A stretch of 64,000 nt of DNA from Candidatus Bathyarchaeota archaeon (GTDB taxonomy: Archaea > Thermoproteota > Bathyarchaeia > Bathyarchaeales > Bathycorpusculaceae): NCBI GenBank assembly GCA_963806535.1, contig CAWDYC010000003.1:1-64000 (forward strand), written 5' to 3'. The notes under the pieces were generated by a model, which was not told where the DNA came from, made no database searches, and saw only the letters and a list, made by a program, of their open reading frames with translations. The position numbers were made by a program, and so were the translations under genes. Positions 16,403 to 26,249 of the stretch are shown here, piece by piece; the stretch's first letter is position 1; each line of letters begins with the position of its first letter.

Positions 16403-16627
16403 ATGACGATGAAGACGGTTAGCGTAAGAATATCCGACGAAGAAAAGCGCCAATTAAAGAAGTATGGCAGATTATCAGACACCCTAAGGGAAGGCATGAA
16501 ACTCTACCTAAACAAAAAGAAATCCGACGAGTTGCTATGCAAACTGGAAAAAATGCAATCTGAAAGCGAAATAAAAACCTCAATTGAGGAAGAAGTGAAG
16601 CTGATTCGAGAGGATAGAGAACGCTGA
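16403..16627 (+). CDS. vapB: Ribbon-helix-helix antitoxin (VapB-like)
   Basis: TVSVRISDE beta strand, C-terminal LIREDRE; overlaps the downstream PIN gene. Confidence 0.8.
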   Translation: MTMKTVSVRISDEEKRQLKKYGRLSDTLREGMKLYLNKKKSDELLCKLEKMQSESEIKTSIEEEVKLIREDRER

Positions 16628-17001
16628 TAGTTGCCGACAGCAGTTTCATAGTTGAAGGCCTCCTTAAGAAAAAAGAATTACTTGCAAATGACCAGATTGT
16701 GGCTCCTGAGTTAGTTGCCTACGAAGTCACAAACGCCATTTGGAAGCATGAACATCTTTTGAAGGACTTAGAAAACGGTAAACCATACATATCGATTTTC
16801 TACGGTCTAATAGAAGCTGGGAAAATAAGGATCCTAACTCCAAACGAAGAGTTGATGCAGAAATCATATTTGATTGCAAAAAGGCAAGGAATTACAATAT
16901 ACGACGCAGTTTTCGTTTCGCTGGCAATTAAATTAGGACTGCCCTTAAAAAGCTACGATAGAGTTCAAATTCGAGCTCTAGAATCTGAGAATAGCCGCTG
17001 A
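16624..17001 (+). CDS. vapC: PIN-domain toxin (VapC)
   Basis: Frame extends to an overlapping CTG start: IVADSS...APELVAYEVTNAIWK...ITIYDAVFVSLA...SYD. Confidence 0.85.
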   Translation: MIVADSSFIVEGLLKKKELLANDQIVAPELVAYEVTNAIWKHEHLLKDLENGKPYISIFYGLIEAGKIRILTPNEELMQKSYLIAKRQGITIYDAVFVSLAIKLGLPLKSYDRVQIRALESENSR

Positions 17002-17112: not shown

Positions 17113-17340
17113 TTGCAGAAAACAGTAAAAGTTACCAGAAAAGGACAAACAACTATACCTGCCAGAATCAGAGAAGAACTGGGAATAAAAGAGGGAGACG
17201 ACTTGTCAGTCGAAGCTGTTGACCAAGCAGTGATCTTCAAACGCATACCCAAAATAGAGGATTGTGCAGGAATCTTTGCCGGTCACGCAGACGTGACAGA
17301 AATGAAAAAGGAAATCGACAAGCTTCGAGAGGAATACTAA
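17113..17340 (+). CDS. AbrB/MazE/SpoVT antitoxin
   Basis: VTRKGQTTIPARIREELGIKEGD. Confidence 0.9.
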   Translation: MQKTVKVTRKGQTTIPARIREELGIKEGDDLSVEAVDQAVIFKRIPKIEDCAGIFAGHADVTEMKKEIDKLREEY

Positions 17341-17343
17341 TCG

Positions 17344-17742
17344 TTGAAGCAAGTGCTTGACAGTCGATTCTTTGTGGAATACTACTATTCCCAAGACCCG
17401 ATCATTCGACAGAAAGTCAATCAGAAAATTAAAGAGCTAACCAAAAATAGTAGCGGCATAATACCAACCATTGTTGTTTGTGAAACAATTCAGCTGATCT
17501 GCTCACGAGAGGGCAAGCAAAAAGCAGAAATGATCTACCTATCAATCATTTCAAGTGGAATAAGAATCGAAAGTCTAAGCCCTTCAATTGCGAAAGAAGC
17601 AGGCATACTAAAAAGCGTATACAAACACATTCCAGTCGGCGACTGCATCATCGCCGCCACAGCAATCAGAAACCAAGCGAGAATACTCTCAGACGATTCG
17701 CACTTCGATGCAATAGAAGAAACAAAACGAATATGGCTTTAG
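17344..17742 (+). CDS. vapC: PIN-domain toxin (VapC)
   Basis: VLDS...E...GDCIIAATA...SDDSHF acidic PIN motifs. Confidence 0.9.
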   Translation: MKQVLDSRFFVEYYYSQDPIIRQKVNQKIKELTKNSSGIIPTIVVCETIQLICSREGKQKAEMIYLSIISSGIRIESLSPSIAKEAGILKSVYKHIPVGDCIIAATAIRNQARILSDDSHFDAIEETKRIWL

Positions 17743-18189
17743 AAGCTAAAGCTTAACAAAGAGACATCTTTCAGGTCATGTTCACACCCTTGAGCTGAAG
17801 AAAAAAAAGGAATTTAGAGTTGGCTGAAGAATTGGAGCAGTTTAGGGCATGGCTTGATTCAGAAGAGCAGAGACAATTCGGCATAAAATACGCAGAACAT
17901 GAAGCAGCCCGTTTCGAGACCGATAAATAGAAAACCAGTGTAACCAAGTGTGCTCCCCTTATTACTCACAATTAAGTAATGAAAAAAACACAAAAAGTCT
18001 ATCCTGTACATCGAAAATGATCGTCGATGGGATTTTAGGAAAGATTTTAATAATTTGTTAGTTTAGGGACATTTAAGATGGTTTTCTTTTTCGGTGGGTA
18101 AATGAGCAAGAAACAATCTAAGAAGCTTAATGTGCTTGTGAATAAAAGCCAGCCTTCTGAGCAAATGCTGCCGCGAAGAGCTTGCTCAA

Positions 18190-19531
18190 TTGATTCTTTC
18201 GCCGTTTGTCCACCTGTTCAATATTGATGAATCGACGAAGTGTCTTTTCAATTCTTTAACTCTAAAGAAAGTATACTTAACCAACAAAAAGTACGAAAAG
18301 GTTTTAGCAGATCTAAGTAAAGGCGAGCGCAGTAAGGACGTCAAAGAGTTAATTGAACTAAAATTTGTGGTGCCTCAGGGGTTTGATGAGGAAAAAGTGT
18401 TTGATACTGTTGCAAGCAGCTTGCTTAGAAAAAAACCACAAACCAACCTTGCCTACATTTTGGTGACTGACTTCTGCAATTTCAGATGCGGCTACTGCTT
18501 TATCGAAAACAATCTAAAAGGACCAAGTACCGCGATGTCTAAGGATTTGGCTGACAAAGTCATAAACGTCCTAATCAACGAGGCAAAGCAAGTTCCAGAA
18601 TTCAGGGTCACATTTTATGGGGGAGAGCCGTTTAGCAATAGCGAAATTGTTTTCTACATTATTGAGAAGCTTGAACAGGCATCTAAGAAATTCTTGTTTT
18701 CCTGCGTCACAAATGGAAGCCTAATAACCGAAGACATAGCTAAAAAACTTAAACAACACAACGTTGCCGTAGGATTATCGCTTGACGGATGGGCTAACAT
18801 TGACAAAAACCGTGTTTTCACTGATGGAAAAGAAACCTTTTACTCAGCACTCAAAGCCTTAGCTATTCTAAAAGAAGCAGGCGTAAACACAGGAATATCG
18901 TGCACAATCACAAAACAGAACTATGAGCACGCAGAAGAAATAGTAGAATTTATCCAGAAACTGGGAGTCAGAACCATAGGCTTCAACTTGTTGACCAGAC
19001 TTAAAGAGCCAAGCAAATTTGAGGTGCCTGATCCCAAAACAACTTGCCCATCATCTTTTTGCAGCTTACTTAAAAGCAAAAGAATTGCACATGTTTGAAG
19101 ATCGCATTGATAATCGGCGAGCAAATTATTTTTTCAAAGAAATATTTCATATTTACGATTGCCCCGCGTTTGGTCAACTACTATTTTTTTCGCCAACCGG
19201 AACAGTAGGACCTTGCCACGCGTTCTATCCGTCGGGGAAATATCAAATTCCAATCAAAGAGGATTTGAAAATTCAAGAAGAACCATTGTTTTACAAATGG
19301 CTGGAAATAGGCACTCTAAAAAATAAAGACTGTATGAGGTGTCCTGCGATTGGAATTTGCGGTGGAGGATGCGCTTACGATATCTATGTTAAAACTGGTC
19401 AACTTGGCATAAAAGAAGACTACTTCTGCACTTTTCAAAATGAAATACTAAAGCTCCTAATTTCATACAATTTCCTGCTGGAATCTCAAAATAAACATTG
19501 CAAAAACCAAAAGTTGAAGAATTTGTCCTAA
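18190..19531 (+). CDS. Radical SAM/SPASM peptide maturase-like enzyme (+1 frameshift near 19035-19040, likely a sequencing error)
   Basis: CNFRCGYC, YGGEP, SLDG in 18190-19098. The SPASM Cys array (CPAFG, GPCH, CMRCPAIGICGGGC, C) lies in the overlapping 19019-19531 frame. ~80-aa N-terminal extension. Confidence 0.9.
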
Positions 19532-19598: not shown

Positions 19599-20021
19599 TT
19601 GTTTTTGTCAAAAAATAAATCTACACCTAACTCTTCCTCAAAAAAACCAACTACTGCTCCATCAGCAAAAAAATTGACTCCAGCACAAAAGAAACGTTTA
19701 CAGAAAACTTTGGCAAAAATGCCACCTATTGAAAAACTGGATCCTAAAATGTATGCAAAACTGCAGTCAACAATACGTGATGCCGTAGCAAAAACTTTAC
19801 CGGAATATCAGCAATGGGTAAATTCTTCATTGATAGCAGCCGATGATTGCCCGACAGAACTCTGTAGTTCATGCGGCAACCAATGTCCAGCAGAATTGTG
19901 CAGTGCATGCAGCAACCAATGTCCCACACCAATTAAAAGCATTGATGACATTGTCGTGAATGCTGTCAACGAGGCTATGATGGGAGCAATTCGTCAAGCT
20001 TTGAAAGAGCAGTTCAAATAA
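19599..20021 (+). CDS. Candidate RiPP precursor A with internal 7-Cys repeat core
   Basis: DDCPTELCSSCGNQCPAELCSACSNQCPTP between helical segments; paralogue of 21829-22230; lies between two radical SAM genes. Confidence 0.75.
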   Translation: MFLSKNKSTPNSSSKKPTTAPSAKKLTPAQKKRLQKTLAKMPPIEKLDPKMYAKLQSTIRDAVAKTLPEYQQWVNSSLIAADDCPTELCSSCGNQCPAELCSACSNQCPTPIKSIDDIVVNAVNEAMMGAIRQALKEQFK

Positions 20022-20143
20022 GAAGCAGCTTTGCGGTTCAGAAACCGAACGCTATCAACTGAAAAATAGTTCGCCTATTTACGCCATAAAGGTAGTAGCA
20101 TACCATAAAAACCAATGCCTATAGACAGTTCAGATGATCTAAA

Positions 20144-21733
20144 TTGTCTGTTTTTCTTTGCATTCCGCCAGTTTCTTCTTTAGTTCCATATCCTGCAATT
20201 CCATACTTAACAAGCAGCCTGAGAGCAAATAATCAAAAGGTAAGTACCTTTGATCTAAACATAAAAGCTTTTAACCTAACTCTTTTCCATCAGAGAATAG
20301 ATATCAAACCCGGAGAAATTCTAAGTAAAAGTAACAACACGAAAAGGGCAAAATGGAAAAGAGTTCCTAAAGCAGAGATTTATTCGACCATGCGAGAAGG
20401 CCAAGAAATTTTTGAAGAAATAATGTTACAAGAGGCTTATGATCAATTAGGCTATAACATCTCAAACTTAATGTTCAAAGATATTATCAGCGAAGAATCA
20501 AAGCAGGCAACGTTGTCGGATGTTTGGAAAATTTGTAATGATTGGTTTTTAGAAGTTGCCCACGATTCCAAAGAGCAAAATATAGTGGGATTTCATGTAA
20601 TAAGCCATACTGGTTTGATGTGGAGCATACTTCTGGCACGTAAATTAAAGAAAATTCAGCCCAGAATTTTGACAGTTTTGGGCGGTCCAGCATTCCTCTC
20701 AGCGCAAGAAGTTCTGTCTGTCAATTCAGAAATTGACGTAATAGTTCGAGGGGAGGGCGAGGTCACGATTTCTGAGATAGCTAATTCTTATGACGGTAGT
20801 TTGGAATCAATAAAGGGAATCGATGGAATTTCCTACAGAAATGGTAAAAACGGAATTGTTTCCAATGCTGATCGACAGTTGATTAAGTCTCTTGATGCTT
20901 TGCCTTTTCCCGATTACGATGATTTACCATTACATGAATATCCTCAGAATAAGTTTGGAATGCCTATAATGCCAGTTGTTGGCTCTAGAGGCTGTATTGG
21001 AGATTGTGTTTTTTGTGTTGAAAAACGTTTATGGGGCAACACGTATCGGATGCGGTCACCAGAAAACATCGTATCGGAAATCAAGAATATCAAAGAAAAA
21101 TACGGAACTTCCATCATTCGATTCAATGACAGCTCGATTAATTGTAACATCAAATCGCTAGAAAAACTCTGCGATTTATTGATTGAAGAGAATATCGGAA
21201 TGCAGTGGACGAGCAACGCCAGAATTCGTCCTGAAATGAACAACAAACTGCTTAGGAAAATGCGGCAAGCGGGTTGTATGGGCTTGTGGTTTGGCATAGA
21301 ATCTGGGTCCCAGAGAATTCTGCGTAAAATGAAAAAAGGGTATGATTTGGAAACTGCTAAAAACGTGATCCACGATACTGCAAAAAATGGCATTCGTGTT
21401 CAGATATTTATGATAGTAGATTTTCCGGGAGAAACTCTCAGCGATTTTAACAAGTCTGTTGCTTTCTTAGAGCAAAACCACCAATTTATTGATCAAGTCA
21501 GCGTTTCACGTTTTGGGGTTTTGCCTGATTCAGAAATTTCTCATAACCCCCAAGAATATGGAATTGAGCTGATCAAAGGAAAAACAGGGGTTAATTACAG
21601 TTATTTGTATTCGCCTACGCCCGATAGCTACCGATATGAAAATCTCCGTTCGGTTTGGAACCGCTTAAGCATGGAAAAAACAGCAGGCTCAAAAAGGAAT
21701 TATCTTCCAAAAATAATTGTTCCATATTACTAA
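20144..21733 (+). CDS. Cobalamin-binding radical SAM protein (class B methyltransferase-like)
   Basis: B12-binding domain (VLGGP, VIVRGEGE, LPFPDY), SRGCIGDCVFC, GIESGSQRILRKMKKG, FPGET. Confidence 0.92.
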   Translation: MSVFLCIPPVSSLVPYPAIPYLTSSLRANNQKVSTFDLNIKAFNLTLFHQRIDIKPGEILSKSNNTKRAKWKRVPKAEIYSTMREGQEIFEEIMLQEAYDQLGYNISNLMFKDIISEESKQATLSDVWKICNDWFLEVAHDSKEQNIVGFHVISHTGLMWSILLARKLKKIQPRILTVLGGPAFLSAQEVLSVNSEIDVIVRGEGEVTISEIANSYDGSLESIKGIDGISYRNGKNGIVSNADRQLIKSLDALPFPDYDDLPLHEYPQNKFGMPIMPVVGSRGCIGDCVFCVEKRLWGNTYRMRSPENIVSEIKNIKEKYGTSIIRFNDSSINCNIKSLEKLCDLLIEENIGMQWTSNARIRPEMNNKLLRKMRQAGCMGLWFGIESGSQRILRKMKKGYDLETAKNVIHDTAKNGIRVQIFMIVDFPGETLSDFNKSVAFLEQNHQFIDQVSVSRFGVLPDSEISHNPQEYGIELIKGKTGVNYSYLYSPTPDSYRYENLRSVWNRLSMEKTAGSKRNYLPKIIVPYY

Positions 21734-21784
21734 AAGTTTACTTTCAAGAAAACGTCTCCTAGCTAAGTCTTAATGTTAATCACT

Positions 21785-21850
21785 AAACCCATAAATATTA
21801 TCTTGAGAGATCATAAAGAGAGCAGTGATTGTTTTTGTCAAAAAATAAAT
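21785..21850 (+). promoter_or_regulatory. Duplicated upstream/promoter block (ccataaatattatcttgagagatcataaa), partner 22358-22423
   Basis: Same block directly upstream of precursor B and of the methyltransferase; contains an AT-rich TATA-like ATAAATATT. Confidence 0.6.
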
Positions 21851-22230
21851 TTACACCTAACTCTTCCACAAAAAACCTGACCCCAGCACAAAAGAAACGT
21901 TTAGAGAAAACCTTGGCACAAATGCCACCTATTGAAAAACTGGATCCTGCAGTTTATGCAAAGCTACAGTCATCGATACGTGATGCCGTGGCAAAAACTT
22001 TGCCAGAATATCAGAAGTGGGTAAATTCTTCTTTGATAGCAGCCGATGATTGCCCCCCGCCGGCACCTGTGTGTAGTTCTTGTGGCAACGATTGCCCCAC
22101 GCAGCTTTGTAGTTCATGTGGAAACGACTGCCCAACGCCAAATAGAAAACTGGACGATATGGTTGTTAATGCGGTAAACGAGGCTATAACGGGAGCAATT
22201 CGTCAAGCTTTGAAAGGTCAGTTCAAATAA
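21829..22230 (+). CDS. Candidate RiPP precursor B with internal 7-Cys repeat core
   Basis: DDCPPPAPVCSSCGNDCPTQLCSSCGNDCPTP; leader and follower highly similar to precursor A. Confidence 0.75.
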   Translation: MFLSKNKFTPNSSTKNLTPAQKKRLEKTLAQMPPIEKLDPAVYAKLQSSIRDAVAKTLPEYQKWVNSSLIAADDCPPPAPVCSSCGNDCPTQLCSSCGNDCPTPNRKLDDMVVNAVNEAITGAIRQALKGQFK

Positions 22231-22406
22231 GAGCGGTCAGAAACTAACATTCTCAAAAAATAGTTCACAGAATTACGCCACAAAAAGTAGCAGGTGCTAT
22301 AAAAAAATTGTCCTATGATTACACAAATTTATTTTCAAGAGTCTGTATGCCTTCAAAAAACCATAAATATTATCTTGAGAGATCATAAATAGAGCAGCGA
22401 TTATTT

Positions 22407-23511
22407 TTGCCAAAAAATAAACCAACAACCAAAACCCTCTCTAAAAAACCTACAAAAACCAAAAAGCAAAATCAACACCTGAACGCACCTTCGGAAAAAG
22501 ATCCTCATTTTGAAAAGTTGGATCCAGAAATTTATGCAAAACTGCAATCAACTATCCATGAAGTCATAGAAAAAACGTTGCCAGAGTACAAAGAATGGCT
22601 AAACTCTGCATTTGGCGAAAAAATCATAGGCAATGATTGTTCAAATGAATCCTTGCAGAACATCGACAAGATTGTGGTTTCGGCTGTCAACAAAGCAATG
22701 AAAACAGCAATTCCTCAAGCTTTGAAGGAATATGATGAGCAGCAGGGAATTATGGAAAAATGGTTTAAAATGAAATTTTATGATGACGTTTCAGACATAA
22801 GACCTGAAAGCCGAGCTTACTACAAATATTGTGTAGAAAATTTTGTTACACAATTTTTTACCAGAGAAAAAATATCTGGAAAGAAAATCCTCGATTTTGG
22901 ATGTGGACCAGGATATTTTTCCACGATTTTAGCCCAAACGTGGAGCACACATAACTGGAATTGACAGAAGTGCATTTCTGATTTCGAAAGCAAACGAACT
23001 CAAGCAAAGACTAGAACTTGAAAATGTAGAGTTTTTGCAGGGGGATTTTCTTGATTTTGCAAAAAATATGCCCTCTGAAAAGTTTGACTACATTGTCGCG
23101 ATAGATACGATTGTGAGTTTTGACTATTGTAGACAAACGCATAATCATAAGGATTTCATCCAGGCTTTAAGCGAAATTAGAAGAGTTATGAAAGATGAGG
23201 GTAGATTTTTTATTATTGAGGCGCATCCGTTTTTTGGTCAACTTGCGAAAGGAATAACTTTCTCAAAGGAAGGACATTTTCATGGTCGTTTACCTAATTA
23301 TAAAATAGAGTATAAGGCTAAGGATAATCCGCATCATTGGTTTACCCTTGATGAAATGACGAGTGCTCTTAGCGAGAACTGTTTGGCTATTTGCAGGATT
23401 TATGAGCCTGATCCAAGTGTTGAATTGGAAAAAGAAAATCCTCATTTGTACAGGTTTTACTTGAAGTATCCGCATTTGATTGTATATGAAATATGCAAAG
23501 TGAAAATCTAA
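22407..23511 (+). CDS. Class I SAM-dependent methyltransferase fused to a precursor-like leader/follower scaffold (frameshift near 22935)
   Basis: N-terminal EKLDPEIYAKLQSTI...KTLPEYKEWLNS...IDKIVVSAVNKAMKTAIPQALKE. ILDFGCGPG (motif I) continues after a one-base shift as RGAHITGID...LQGDF...FDYIVA...GRFFIIEAHP. Confidence 0.85.
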
Positions 23512-23677: not shown

Positions 23678-23890
23678 TTACTCAATTGTTCGGCGGATAC
23701 CAGCGAATGTATCAAAGTCTTTGTCAAAAGAGTAAACCTTTTGAATTGCCCTTTTTTTCATCAGCACATAAGCAAGAGCAGCGTTAACTCCCACTCTCTG
23801 ATCTTCTGTAACTGATATTGCTTTCAAATAATCATCTTTGATAACCTCGCAGATCAAAATATTTTCACGAAACCAGTTTCACAATCATCT
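23678..23890 (-). pseudogene. vapC: C-terminal fragment of a PIN/VapC toxin
   Basis: Manual translation ...DYLKAISVTEDQRVGVNAALAYVLMKKRAIQKVYSFDKDFDTFAGIRR*. Confidence 0.7.
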
Positions 23891-24047: not shown

Positions 24048-26249
24048 ATGGTTCAGAAAGAAGTCTTGAAGAAAACTAGAACTTATGGTTTAATTGCATT
24101 ACTTTTAGCTATAGTCCTTGTGGCGATGATTTATGCTTATGGAAATACAGGGATTTCTCCTGGAGCACCTCAGCAACCAGGGTCGTCTCAGGGAACATTG
24201 GCTCAGGGGAATTTGGGAACACAAACGGTTGGAACACAAACATCTTTGCAAACTTTTACTTCAATTAATGAACTCAAAAACTTCCTAAACCAAAGCAGCG
24301 GCTCAAACCCGTATAGGTATGCCTTCAACAACGCAGGCACTTATAACGAGTTAGCTCCCATGCCGGTACCCTCAACAGCACCTTCGGCGGCATCTTTAAC
24401 TGCGCAAAGCGCTTCAAATGACTATTCAACAACTAATATCCAAGTTGCCGGCGTCGATGAAGCAGACAAAGTGAAAACCGATGGGCAATACATCTACGTC
24501 ATAGGCAACAATAGCCAAGCTGTTTACATTTTAGATGCCAGCTCTCAAAACCCACAAAACGCCAAAGTTCTTAGCAAAATATTATTTGATAACGGTTATC
24601 CGCAGGGAATTTATCTTAGCGCAGACGGCAACAAACTCGCTGTTCTAGGAAGCAACAATGTACCTTATCAGGTTTATGGGAGGGTTCTTGGGTTATATCC
24701 GGCCAACATGATGTTTCCCAGTTGGACTGCCAGCACAAACTTCGTCTACGTTTATGATGTCTCAAACAAAGCTAATCCGGTACTTTCACGGAACTTCACG
24801 ATGAGCGGCAGCTACGTTAACAGTCGAATGATTGGTAATTATGTTTATGACATAATCTCAGAAAACTCTTATCTTTTAAATGGAACCGTTTTGCTTCCCA
24901 CAGTTTTTTCTGGTCAGCAACCCTCCGCCGTATCGCCCACAAGCATCTACTATGTTAACAATTCGGACGCAAGCTACATGTACACAACCATAGTTGCCTT
25001 AAACATCGAAAACAGTCAGGAACAAGGAGTAAGCACAACTGTCCTTATGGGCAACGCAGGAACAATATACGTTTCCCAAAGCAACATCTACCTAACTGAC
25101 CAAGTAACCACCTATCAACCCGTAAAAACACCTTTAGCCACGCCGTCTCAAACTGGCACAACTATTATGCCAATGCCAATCATTCCCGTGCAGCTTTATT
25201 GGCAGGGAACCGCCATTTACCGCATACAAATCTCAGGGCCATCTCTTACGCTTGCCGCTTCAGGAAACGTTACAGGCACCGTTATGAGCCAGTACTCGAT
25301 GGATGAATACAACGGGTACTTCCGCATAGCCACTAGCTCCTCCGATTACTCCCAAACCAGCTATTCGTCTACGCAACAGAATAACCTGTACATATTAGAC
25401 TCGAATCTGAAGGTCGTGGGAAAAATCGAAAACTTAGCCAGCGGAGAAGAACTGCATTCCGCCCGATTTATAGCTGACCGATGCTACTTAGTCACCTTCA
25501 ACCAAATTGACCCCCTGTTTGTCCTCGACTTAACTCAACCCACAAACCCCATGGTCCTTGGCAACCTAACAATACCTGGATACTCAGATTTCCTGCAGCC
25601 CTACGACGCAACACATCTGATCGGAATCGGTCAAGATGTAAATGCCAGCATTGATGCAAACAAAGTGGAAACTCCAGGTGACGTATATTACACCGCTGTT
25701 TTAGGCTTGAAAGTATCCCTATTCGACGTTAGTAACGTTGCAAACCCGAAGGAAACTTCAAGCATCGTCATAGGCGACAGCGGAACAACTTCAGAAGCCC
25801 TCACTGACCCTAAAGCCATCCTCTTCGATGCATCCAAAAACCTCCTAGTCTTGCCAATTGAACTGTACCTATCAACCAACAGCACGGCAACAACATCGCC
25901 GGGCGCCACAGGTACCGCAGGTAATGGAATAGCCGTTCCAGCCCCCGCGCCAATGATCCCAACAAACACTTATTATCCCCAGTTCGCATGGCAGGGAATA
26001 TACGTATTCAACGTTGACCTCACAAACGGCATCACAATTAAAGGCAACATAACACAGTTAGACAATGCATCAACATATCTCGCCAACCCGTCCCTTGCAA
26101 CAACAGGGTCATACCCGTGGGGAGAAAGCCAATACTTCATTGACCGCTCACTGTACATCGGCAATGTCCTATACACTGTCAGCCAAAGCAGAGTGCAACT
26201 AAACAGTCTAGGCAACTTCACCCTACTAGCTAAAGTAGATCTAAATTAA
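24048..26249 (+). CDS. Membrane-anchored secreted beta-propeller domain protein (Beta_propel family)
   Basis: N-terminal TM helix; YSTTNIQVAGVDEADKVKTDG, SMDEYNGYFRIAT, IDPLFVLDL, IPGYSDFLQP. Confidence 0.9.
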   Translation: MVQKEVLKKTRTYGLIALLLAIVLVAMIYAYGNTGISPGAPQQPGSSQGTLAQGNLGTQTVGTQTSLQTFTSINELKNFLNQSSGSNPYRYAFNNAGTYNELAPMPVPSTAPSAASLTAQSASNDYSTTNIQVAGVDEADKVKTDGQYIYVIGNNSQAVYILDASSQNPQNAKVLSKILFDNGYPQGIYLSADGNKLAVLGSNNVPYQVYGRVLGLYPANMMFPSWTASTNFVYVYDVSNKANPVLSRNFTMSGSYVNSRMIGNYVYDIISENSYLLNGTVLLPTVFSGQQPSAVSPTSIYYVNNSDASYMYTTIVALNIENSQEQGVSTTVLMGNAGTIYVSQSNIYLTDQVTTYQPVKTPLATPSQTGTTIMPMPIIPVQLYWQGTAIYRIQISGPSLTLAASGNVTGTVMSQYSMDEYNGYFRIATSSSDYSQTSYSSTQQNNLYILDSNLKVVGKIENLASGEELHSARFIADRCYLVTFNQIDPLFVLDLTQPTNPMVLGNLTIPGYSDFLQPYDATHLIGIGQDVNASIDANKVETPGDVYYTAVLGLKVSLFDVSNVANPKETSSIVIGDSGTTSEALTDPKAILFDASKNLLVLPIELYLSTNSTATTSPGATGTAGNGIAVPAPAPMIPTNTYYPQFAWQGIYVFNVDLTNGITIKGNITQLDNASTYLANPSLATTGSYPWGESQYFIDRSLYIGNVLYTVSQSRVQLNSLGNFTLLAKVDLN

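Follow-up and report, generated by a model that had tools for sequence, protein, structure and literature searches.

The stretch of DNA analysed here (the window) comprises 64,000 nucleotides, positions 1 to 64,000 of contig CAWDYC010000003.1 from assembly GCA_963806535.1 of a Candidatus Bathyarchaeota archaeon. It encodes two paralogous proteins, precursor A (19599-20021) and precursor B (21829-22230), in which a loop of cysteine (Cys) repeats lies between two conserved, predicted helices. We favour the reading that A and B are probably substrates of a CteB/PapB-like, thioether-forming radical S-adenosylmethionine (SAM)/SPASM enzyme encoded beside them, and that they probably keep the size of a protein, as do the substrates of the published CrpA/CrpC and QhpC/QhpD systems. 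The parts of this reading differ in strength: that the precursors are substrates is quite likely, thioether chemistry is evenly balanced, and an uncleaved product is a shade more doubtful still. A substrate role is the best reading because the radical-SAM/SPASM gene adjoins the precursors in every related locus.

In the mechanism we propose, a self-contained modification cassette of four to five genes, found in one Bathyarchaeial genus, would act on precursors A and B. The Cys-repeat loop, with one to three units (rarely more) of the form P-x3-C-S-x-C-x-N-D/Q-C, would be the site modified by the adjacent radical-SAM/SPASM enzyme, and the modification would most likely consist of Cys-to-carbon thioether crosslinks. 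A B12-binding radical-SAM enzyme and a class I SAM methyltransferase would add further methylation. The flanking helices would act as a functional docking scaffold and not as a disposable leader, and the product would be expected to remain a crosslinked mini-protein like CrpA or QhpC, not a cleaved peptide.

Sequence and conservation of the precursors

Precursor A is an open reading frame (ORF) of 140 residues on the plus strand. Its first 40 residues form a tail rich in Lys, Ser, Thr and Pro, followed by a helix-1 block (41-83), the core (84-111), a variable linker (112-116) and helix 2 (117-140). Core A (19848-19931, plus strand) translates as CPTELCSSCGNQCPAELCSACSNQCPTP, which is two 12-residue units followed by CPTP. 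Precursor B, an ORF of 133 residues on the same strand, is 79-80% identical to A and has a shorter N-terminal tail; its core (22051-22140, plus strand) translates as CPPPAPVCSSCGNDCPTQLCSSCGNDCPTP, again two units and CPTP, with a 2-residue insertion in the first unit. The unit in both cores follows the 12-residue pattern CP-x3-5-C-S-x-C-x-N-D/Q, and the Cys spacing is C-x4-C-x2-C-x3-C-P. A preliminary description of this DNA had given the positions of both cores and seven Cys in each, and translation reproduces these exactly. Cys makes up about 5% of the precursors. At the DNA level, Tandem Repeats Finder detects a 36-nucleotide period in core A (19855-19924, 1.9 copies, 85% matches). The starts of the precursors are called inconsistently by gene callers, giving database forms of 100, 115, 138 and 140 residues. 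All three genes that carry the helical scaffold (A, B and the methyltransferase gene described below; 5′ parts at 19599-19718, 21829-21921 and 22407-22499) have a TTG start immediately after an in-frame stop, and open with a conserved (F)LSKNK/PKNK motif ahead of the Lys/Ser/Thr/Pro-rich tail.

Searches returned 132 homologues at E<=0.01, of 77-245 residues and 55-95% identity, among which one source is labelled Candidatus Bathyarchaeia. Of these homologues 120 were listed and parsed, and 116 of the 120 fit the unit pattern while 4 did not. Among the 116 listed and parsed proteins, one unit is present in 4, two in 83 and three in 29. The Cys count is 3n+1 for n units, or 3n where the first Cys is lost, and 14 of the 116 have 6 Cys; one homologue with additional CPPxD pieces has 12. 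The repeat is no chance feature, because 132 homologues were found and units could be parsed in nearly all of those listed. When 1.84 billion representatives were searched with a profile built from 13 trimmed domains, only 17 clusters came up at E<=0.001; the sole long form among them is the methyltransferase fusion. In a sample of 401 genomes of the class the protein is present in 4, all in a single genus (the genome of the window and 3 of 40 others), and the genome of the window holds only the three scaffold-bearing copies of this cluster. Pfam and NCBIfam searches with the precursors gave only sub-threshold chance matches (LppA, FYVE_2) and thus no similarity to a curated family, and an ESM Atlas feature search with residues 41-140 gave no usable match. 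Literature searches returned no earlier description of the family; the supplement of PMC13692751 (Figure S3, Dataset 1), which might list related proteins, was outside their scope. Those combining Bathyarchaeia or Bathyarchaeota with SPASM or with radical-SAM RiPPs (peptides synthesized ribosomally and modified after translation) returned only papers on lipid enzymes, and those on follower peptides and SPASM returned reviews or unrelated papers, none on this family.

The preliminary description had also proposed near-invariant flanks around a variable core. For the A/B pair this holds: 38 of 42 positions of the upstream block and 21 of 26 of the downstream block are identical, as against 9 substitutions in 28 aligned core positions plus the 2-residue insertion (counted from the translated strings), so the flanks are the better preserved part. 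It also holds for distant members, in which helix 1 (EKLDPxxYxKLQSxIxExxEKxxPEYxxW) is recognisable and the core motif is exchanged for CPxPxCDCxxCP, CMECDCDCTNCSSCGSCGSC or PxPACWSCGTG. Within the close family it does not. In an alignment of 124 sequences, helix 1 averages 0.55 bits of entropy per column, the core 0.64 and helix 2 0.67; the five residues that follow CPTP as a linker average 1.81, and the N-terminal tail averages 1.0. The ratio of nonsynonymous to synonymous substitution rates (dN/dS) agrees, with 0.14 for the core, 0.17 for helix 1 and 0.58 for the linker and helix 2 (7 orthologues, 21 non-independent pairs). Per position, then, the core and helix 1 are about equally conserved, and the core is not the more conserved of the two. 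These measures indicate that the Cys/Pro/Asn skeleton of the core is as constrained as helix 1, and that variation in the close family lies in the x3 segment, the number of units and the linker.

In the same alignment C92, C96, P97, C101 and C104 are conserved in all sequences. N94 and N106 are conserved in 93-98%, and S90/S102 and D/Q95 are conserved too; this bears out the conservation of the Asn, Asp and Ser residues, which the preliminary description had proposed as plausible thioether acceptors. The first Cys (C84) is kept in 86% and replaced in 14%, and for this reason the essential unit is better written as P-x3-C-S-x-C-x-N-D/Q-C, with three Cys per unit. Conserved acidic motifs bound the core, AADD before it and IDD after it.

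An AlphaFold2 model of precursor A built from a 124-row alignment (mean predicted local distance difference test score (pLDDT) 61, predicted template modelling score (pTM) 0.30) contains helices at 28-40, 49-81 and 113-138, and places the core (83-111) at pLDDT below 50. The internal position of the core, with conserved blocks on both sides, is therefore borne out by the helices at 49-81 and 113-138 that flank it, and a helix-loop-helix layout is supported by the model. A packed helical hairpin, as first suggested for these proteins, is not established by it: the model has a pTM of 0.30, and neither helix has a hydrophobic moment that is significant against shuffled sequences (0.07 for helix 1, 0.33 for helix 2).

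The enzymes and their cassette

On the plus strand of the window the genes run in the order radical-SAM/SPASM enzyme, precursor A, B12-binding radical-SAM enzyme, precursor B and class I SAM methyltransferase. The radical-SAM/SPASM gene (18102-19531, plus strand), for a putative peptide or protein maturase, is split into three frames, whose translations contain CNFRCGYC and CMRCPAIGICGGGC and match Pfam Radical_SAM (E=4.6e-23) and the SPASM domain model TIGR04085 (46.6 bits, above its cutoff of 27). Intact relatives are 471-499 residues long, and a tblastn search with one of them covers 18102-19528 in the three frames. The solved structure closest to an intact relative is CteB (5wgg/5why, E=1.8e-26); next come 8vpo and anSME. 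Scored against NCBIfam, an intact relative comes out highest with TIGR04136, the FibroRumin maturase (181.7 bits, cutoff 400), and next with the PapB ranthipeptide maturase NF047865 (150.4, cutoff 340); further models include the nif11-type maturase, CefB, QhpD (114.4, cutoff 453), the SCIFF maturase TIGR03974 (109.7, cutoff 425) and TIGR04463 (91.8, cutoff 525). Judged by these similarities, the enzyme falls in the SPASM group of peptide and protein modifiers, in which enzymes that crosslink Cys are common, as a member of no curated family. Because every family model for the enzyme scores below its cutoff, its type of reaction is inferred from relatives.

The second enzyme (20144-21733, plus strand) has 529 residues, with Pfam Radical_SAM (6.8e-20) and B12-binding (1.7e-07) domains, and is a putative C-methyltransferase. 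It scores 158.1 bits (a relative, 160.8) against TIGR03975, the RiPP radical-SAM C-methyltransferase model with a cutoff of 281.85, and 159.5 bits against the ApyD model with a cutoff of 750. It appears nearest to the RiPP C-methyltransferase subfamily, below the cutoff of that subfamily. The third enzyme (22407-23511, plus strand) is a class I SAM methyltransferase whose N-terminal region aligns with precursors A and B; intact relatives have 363-367 residues, and one of them matches Methyltransf_31 at E=4.4e-22.

The cassette is syntenic beyond the window. In all three relatives of the genus that have the protein, the order is radical-SAM/SPASM enzyme, precursor, B12-binding radical-SAM enzyme, in some cases a second precursor, and methyltransferase fusion. 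Among 20 Bathyarchaeota loci collected through the methyltransferase, which come from closely related metagenome-assembled genomes (MAGs) and are not independent, 19 have the same order and the twentieth lacks the B12 gene at that position. The radical-SAM/SPASM gene adjoins a precursor in 20 of the 20, and a second precursor stands between the B12 gene and the methyltransferase gene in 6. Across 21 cassette loci no other ORF family is common to more than 5, except antisense ORFs inside the B12 gene, and no protease or transporter/exporter is common to them. The genes flanking the cassette vary between genomes.

Another genome of the same genus holds a second, diverged cassette (L023:3920-10049), which has neither a B12 enzyme nor a methyltransferase. 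It combines a radical-SAM/SPASM enzyme of 64% identity with a 193-residue precursor that has PxPACWSCGTG units and a long C-terminal extension, and with two further radical-SAM genes of 330 residues. Enzyme and substrate thus appear to diverge together at this locus, which we count in favour of the substrate role. In addition, orphan precursors away from the enzymes occur in genomes that also hold a full cassette (L020:7667-8098, L021:7494-8009 and L022:8078-8506).

Compared with three relatives, the window carries single extra bases near 18170 and near 19033-19040 in the radical-SAM/SPASM gene and near 22936 in the methyltransferase gene, which split the former into three frames and the latter into two. 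Two of the three lie in C or A homopolymer runs. Among the related loci, from long-contig MAGs, 9 of 20 have splits in other genes, and contigs of relatives from RNA libraries have one base fewer at 18168 and at 19032/19040. For these three reasons we read the frameshifts as probable assembly errors.

The RNA-library contigs come from four metatranscriptomic libraries of peat or wetland in three studies, in which DNA may be present. They match the radical-SAM/SPASM gene, precursor A, the B12 gene and the methyltransferase gene at 90-99% identity, and two of them span the radical-SAM/SPASM gene into precursor A. As DNA carry-over is possible in RNA libraries, this is weak evidence that relatives of the cassette are transcribed. 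The region of precursor B (about 21740-22300) had no contig cover in the 4 RNA-library runs, which is no sign that it is absent. Two contigs represent natural variants. In one, exactly one 36-nucleotide unit is missing (19844 joined to 19881); the other lacks precursor B and runs from the end of the B12 gene (21733) into the DNA just upstream of the fusion gene (22357).

Bacteria, too, have cassettes with homologous enzymes. Three loci in Bacillota MAGs (L042:2896-5880, L043:6923-9800 and L044:6902-9799) and one alphaproteobacterial locus (L046:4931-7774) combine a homologous methyltransferase (53-54% identical to the archaeal enzyme) with a FibroRumin-like radical-SAM/SPASM enzyme (27-29%). 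The Bacillota radical-SAM/SPASM enzyme scores 228.5 bits against TIGR04136, again below the cutoff of 400, and for archaeal and bacterial enzymes alike the alignment to this model spans nearly the full length, including the N-terminal domain. The neighbouring ORFs, of 104-181 residues, have an internal Cys-rich stretch followed by a Cys-free C-terminal segment. Those of Bacillota consist of a Lys-rich N-terminus, seven NC(H/A)SDCG(S/T) units and a conserved helix-like tail (RLDxLYDRLDRIESxVDxRFGDVEKILERIS), in a family with only about 4 convincing members. For one of the bacterial analogues a precomputed match to PF27846 is on record. A profile-profile comparison of the archaeal and Bacillota precursor alignments found no homology (probability 17%, over 13 columns in the Lys-rich tail only). 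On the sequences compared, an internal Cys core with a conserved C-terminal segment appears to recur alongside homologous enzymes, and we count this recurrence in favour of the preferred reading.

Several genes around the cassette are recorded here as neighbours. Upstream lie a small ORF with a PIN domain gene (16403-17001) and a MazE-type antitoxin (E=1e-11) with a PIN domain (E=3.5e-12) at 17113-17742; downstream there is a PIN fragment on the minus strand (23678-23857). Such toxin-antitoxin-like pairs fit a variable, island-like setting. Just downstream of the cassette (24048-26249) is a 733-residue protein, hydrophobic in an N-terminal segment, that matches the Beta_propel domain (PF09826, E=4.7e-146). 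We place it outside the cassette because it is common to only 1 of the 20 related loci (L041). The orphan precursors at L020 and L021 each adjoin a PQQ_2/Big_3_5 beta-propeller protein of 821-841 residues, the two being 32% identical to each other. The presence of beta-propeller proteins near orphan precursors and near the cassette of the window may be coincidence.

A core-less scaffold on the methyltransferase

The N-terminal 110-115 or so residues of the methyltransferase (22407-22751) can be aligned with the precursors in three parts, namely the Lys-rich tail, the block of helix 1, and helix 2, but have no repeat units. This core-less copy is conserved in about 45 fused methyltransferase homologues. 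What remains of the core has 0-2 Cys and reads DDCSNDCPTP in distant forms, GNDCSNES in the window and GNDSSNGS in a further locus (L018); the enzyme itself is of the class I Rossmann type. The catalytic domain, which has the signature WFxMKFYDDxSD, also has relatives of 250-330 residues and 53-62% identity that carry other N-terminal extensions and no scaffold. In the records compared, the fusion of scaffold and methyltransferase appears in Bathyarchaeota only.

The DNA upstream of the two genes is duplicated as well. A three-way DNA alignment identifies a region upstream of precursor B (21789-21828, plus strand) and its duplicate upstream of the fusion gene (22361-22406, plus strand), about 45 nucleotides that are nearly identical and look like a promoter or 5′ leader. 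Since the N-terminal domain aligns with the precursors and the upstream regions match, the fusion gene looks like a duplicated precursor gene, including its 5′ region, that was joined to a methyltransferase.

On the methyltransferase both helices persist even where little is left of the core. This indicates that the flanks have a function of their own, independent of being modified. The scaffold may be a docking domain for the enzymes or may co-assemble with the precursors, a proposal we make tentatively, as somewhat less probable than its opposite. In a model of the intact methyltransferase fusion (81 rows) the catalytic domain is confident, and the helices of the N-terminal domain (40-65, 68-74 and 82-124) are at pLDDT of about 50-68. 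A complex prediction of the methyltransferase N-terminal domain (30-125) with precursor A (41-140), run without controls, gave scores of 0.01 and 0.05 against a mark of 0.32, a result that speaks neither for binding nor for its absence.

Three features of the system are unusual: an internal core between conserved helices, a loop that varies in whole units, and a tailoring enzyme fused to a core-less scaffold of its substrate.

Known systems, rival readings and meaning

In the ranthipeptide/SCIFF class the precursor is a short peptide whose leader is N-terminal and whose core is C-terminal. Our system is like this class in that CteB is the closest solved structure and PapB the second-best NCBIfam model, and in that the substrate is Cys-rich, with acidic or amide residues near each Cys. 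It differs in that the precursors have 133-140 residues, with the core at 84-111 and 29 conserved residues after it, and in that the enzyme lies below the PapB and SCIFF maturase cutoffs. FibroRumin is the best curated model for both the archaeal enzyme and its bacterial analogue, each short of the cutoff, and because our literature search found no paper naming FibroRumin its chemistry offers no guidance. QhpD, itself a radical-SAM/SPASM enzyme, crosslinks internal Cys to Asp or Glu in QhpC, a small protein that is kept in a folded assembly as the thioether-crosslinked gamma subunit of quinohemoprotein amine dehydrogenase. QhpD belongs to the leading model matches here, short of its cutoff; the cassette has no dehydrogenase subunit genes. 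Covalent linkage of a tailoring enzyme to precursor-derived sequence is known from borosins, in which a methyltransferase is fused to its own precursor, and from engineered, leader-fused lanthipeptide synthetases. In the fusion described here the scaffold appears to lack a usable core and stands N-terminal on a Rossmann-type class I methyltransferase, and the cores are on separate precursor genes.

The nearest protein-level parallel is the Crp system of Methanococcus voltae. According to the published study, the SPASM radical-SAM enzyme CrpC puts ranthionine crosslinks into the protein-sized CrpA, CrpA and CrpB have a common N-terminal domain, a C-x-x-D/Q motif in both is called suggestive of thioether formation, and substrate engagement is stated to go beyond simple leader binding (PMC13692751). 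Measured against that description, our system is similarly archaeal, with a protein-sized Cys-repeat substrate that adjoins a radical-SAM/SPASM enzyme with an N-terminal extension; the spacing of C92-x-x-D/Q95 equals that of the C-x-x-D/Q motif; and the N-terminal domain of the substrate is common to another protein of the cluster, here a methyltransferase, which is analogy and not homology. There are also clear differences. CrpC belongs to TIGR04463, a model for which the enzyme here is far below the cutoff, and a B12-binding radical-SAM enzyme is present here. The repeats of CrpA are C-terminal, 17 residues long and in 10 copies; ours measure 12 residues, number 1-3 and have a helix on either side. 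The study screened proteins with at least 10% Cys (PMC13692751), a screen that our precursors would fail with their content of about 5%. Judged by sequence, the system appears to resemble both ranthipeptide/SCIFF maturation and the protein-level Crp system, and belongs by the curated cutoffs to none of these families.

Several observations weigh against the reading that A and B are thioether-crosslinked, protein-sized substrates. All family-level maturase models score below their curated cutoffs. Purifying selection acts on the core as it does on helix 1, whereas many antimicrobial RiPPs have hypervariable cores. Metal could be bound through the spacing C-x4-C-x2-C-x3-C-P and through the knuckle-like C-x-x-C-G motifs. 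The low pTM and the non-significant amphipathicity give a hairpin or a docking role no direct support. The radical-SAM/SPASM gene is frameshifted twice and the methyltransferase gene once, and should these shifts be genuine, the cassette in the window is inactive. Finally, a protein-sized product is suggested by the conserved follower helix and by a cassette devoid of protease and exporter; this last step argues from absence and is weaker than the rest, and the cassette holds no protease, yet one could be encoded elsewhere.

That possibility leads to an unlikely alternative, in which A and B are precursors of a cleaved RiPP with leader and follower: the helices would recruit the enzymes, a protease encoded elsewhere would remove them, and the product would be the whole crosslinked loop or single cyclic peptides of 12 residues. 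A number of units that runs from one to three and rarely higher would suit such products, as would the RNA-library contig that lacks exactly one 36-nucleotide unit, the extra precursor genes apart from the enzymes (L020-L022) and the conserved acidic bounds AADD and IDD. It fits poorly with the 21 loci, which have no protease or exporter in common, with a core that is not hypervariable, and with the retention of helix 1 and the follower helix on the methyltransferase, from which no product could be released. Metal binding is a less probable explanation again. Here A and B would be small metal-binding proteins (iron-sulfur (Fe-S), Zn or another thiophilic metal) and not substrates, with the Cys loop as a cofactor site or a store of metal or sulfur, perhaps as an electron or cluster donor to the radical-SAM enzymes. 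The ferredoxin motif is C-x2-C-x2-C-x3-C-P and rubredoxin knuckles are C-x-x-C-G, so that the core spacing and the C-x-x-C-G motifs bear a likeness to each, although the core does not conform to the canonical CxxCxxCxxxCP. The near-invariance of the Cys positions points the same way, and the Crp proteins of M. voltae are reported to be upregulated on pyrite (PMC13692751). Against this, no Fe-S or Zn Pfam family matches at E<=0.01 (the sole weak match, to FYVE_2, has E=0.037 and 14.7 bits, short of the cutoff of 27.2), Cys counts of 3n+1 or 3n do not fit sets of four ligands, the loop is modelled at pLDDT below 50 and varies in unit number, and a RiPP-type radical-SAM/SPASM enzyme with an N-terminal extension is always adjacent.

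A last alternative concerns this copy and not the family: the cassette in the window would be a decaying remnant, with real, pseudogenising frameshifts, in which modification of the precursors has ceased. Decay would explain the single-base insertions, three in all, that two of the enzyme genes carry, but both precursors and the B12 gene are intact, and the homopolymer context of two of the insertions, the different genes split in related loci and the RNA-library contigs free of the extra bases make it very improbable. Crosslinking of protein-sized substrates by the adjacent radical-SAM/SPASM enzyme thus remains the reading we prefer. A bolder extension of it combines several steps: the leader and follower helices would be an autonomous docking domain common to substrate and tailoring enzyme, what finally results would be a helical mini-protein stapled by thioethers, and both would belong to a wider protein-stapling class, which the bacterial cassettes suggest. 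Taken whole, this is doubtful, though slightly less so than a cleaved product. If the docking domain is real, the methyltransferase could join the precursors in one assembly or take their site on the radical-SAM/SPASM enzyme, and the fusion would be a natural counterpart of engineered RiPP enzymes with the leader in cis.

Thioether stapling of protein-sized archaeal substrates has been shown only recently (CrpA/CrpC, 2026), and this cassette, from uncultured Bathyarchaeia of peat and wetland, would be a second, unrelated example. Its architecture differs, with a modified loop held by two conserved helices, a length that changes in steps of 12 residues and an enzyme that bears the scaffold of the substrate. 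The bacterial analogues suggest that precursor-finding tools that expect a terminal core overlook a class of substrates. Compact as it is, with some 100 structured residues and three enzymes, the cassette bears on how RiPP-type enzymes recognise folded substrates, and on whether substrate mimicry helps to assemble an enzyme complex.

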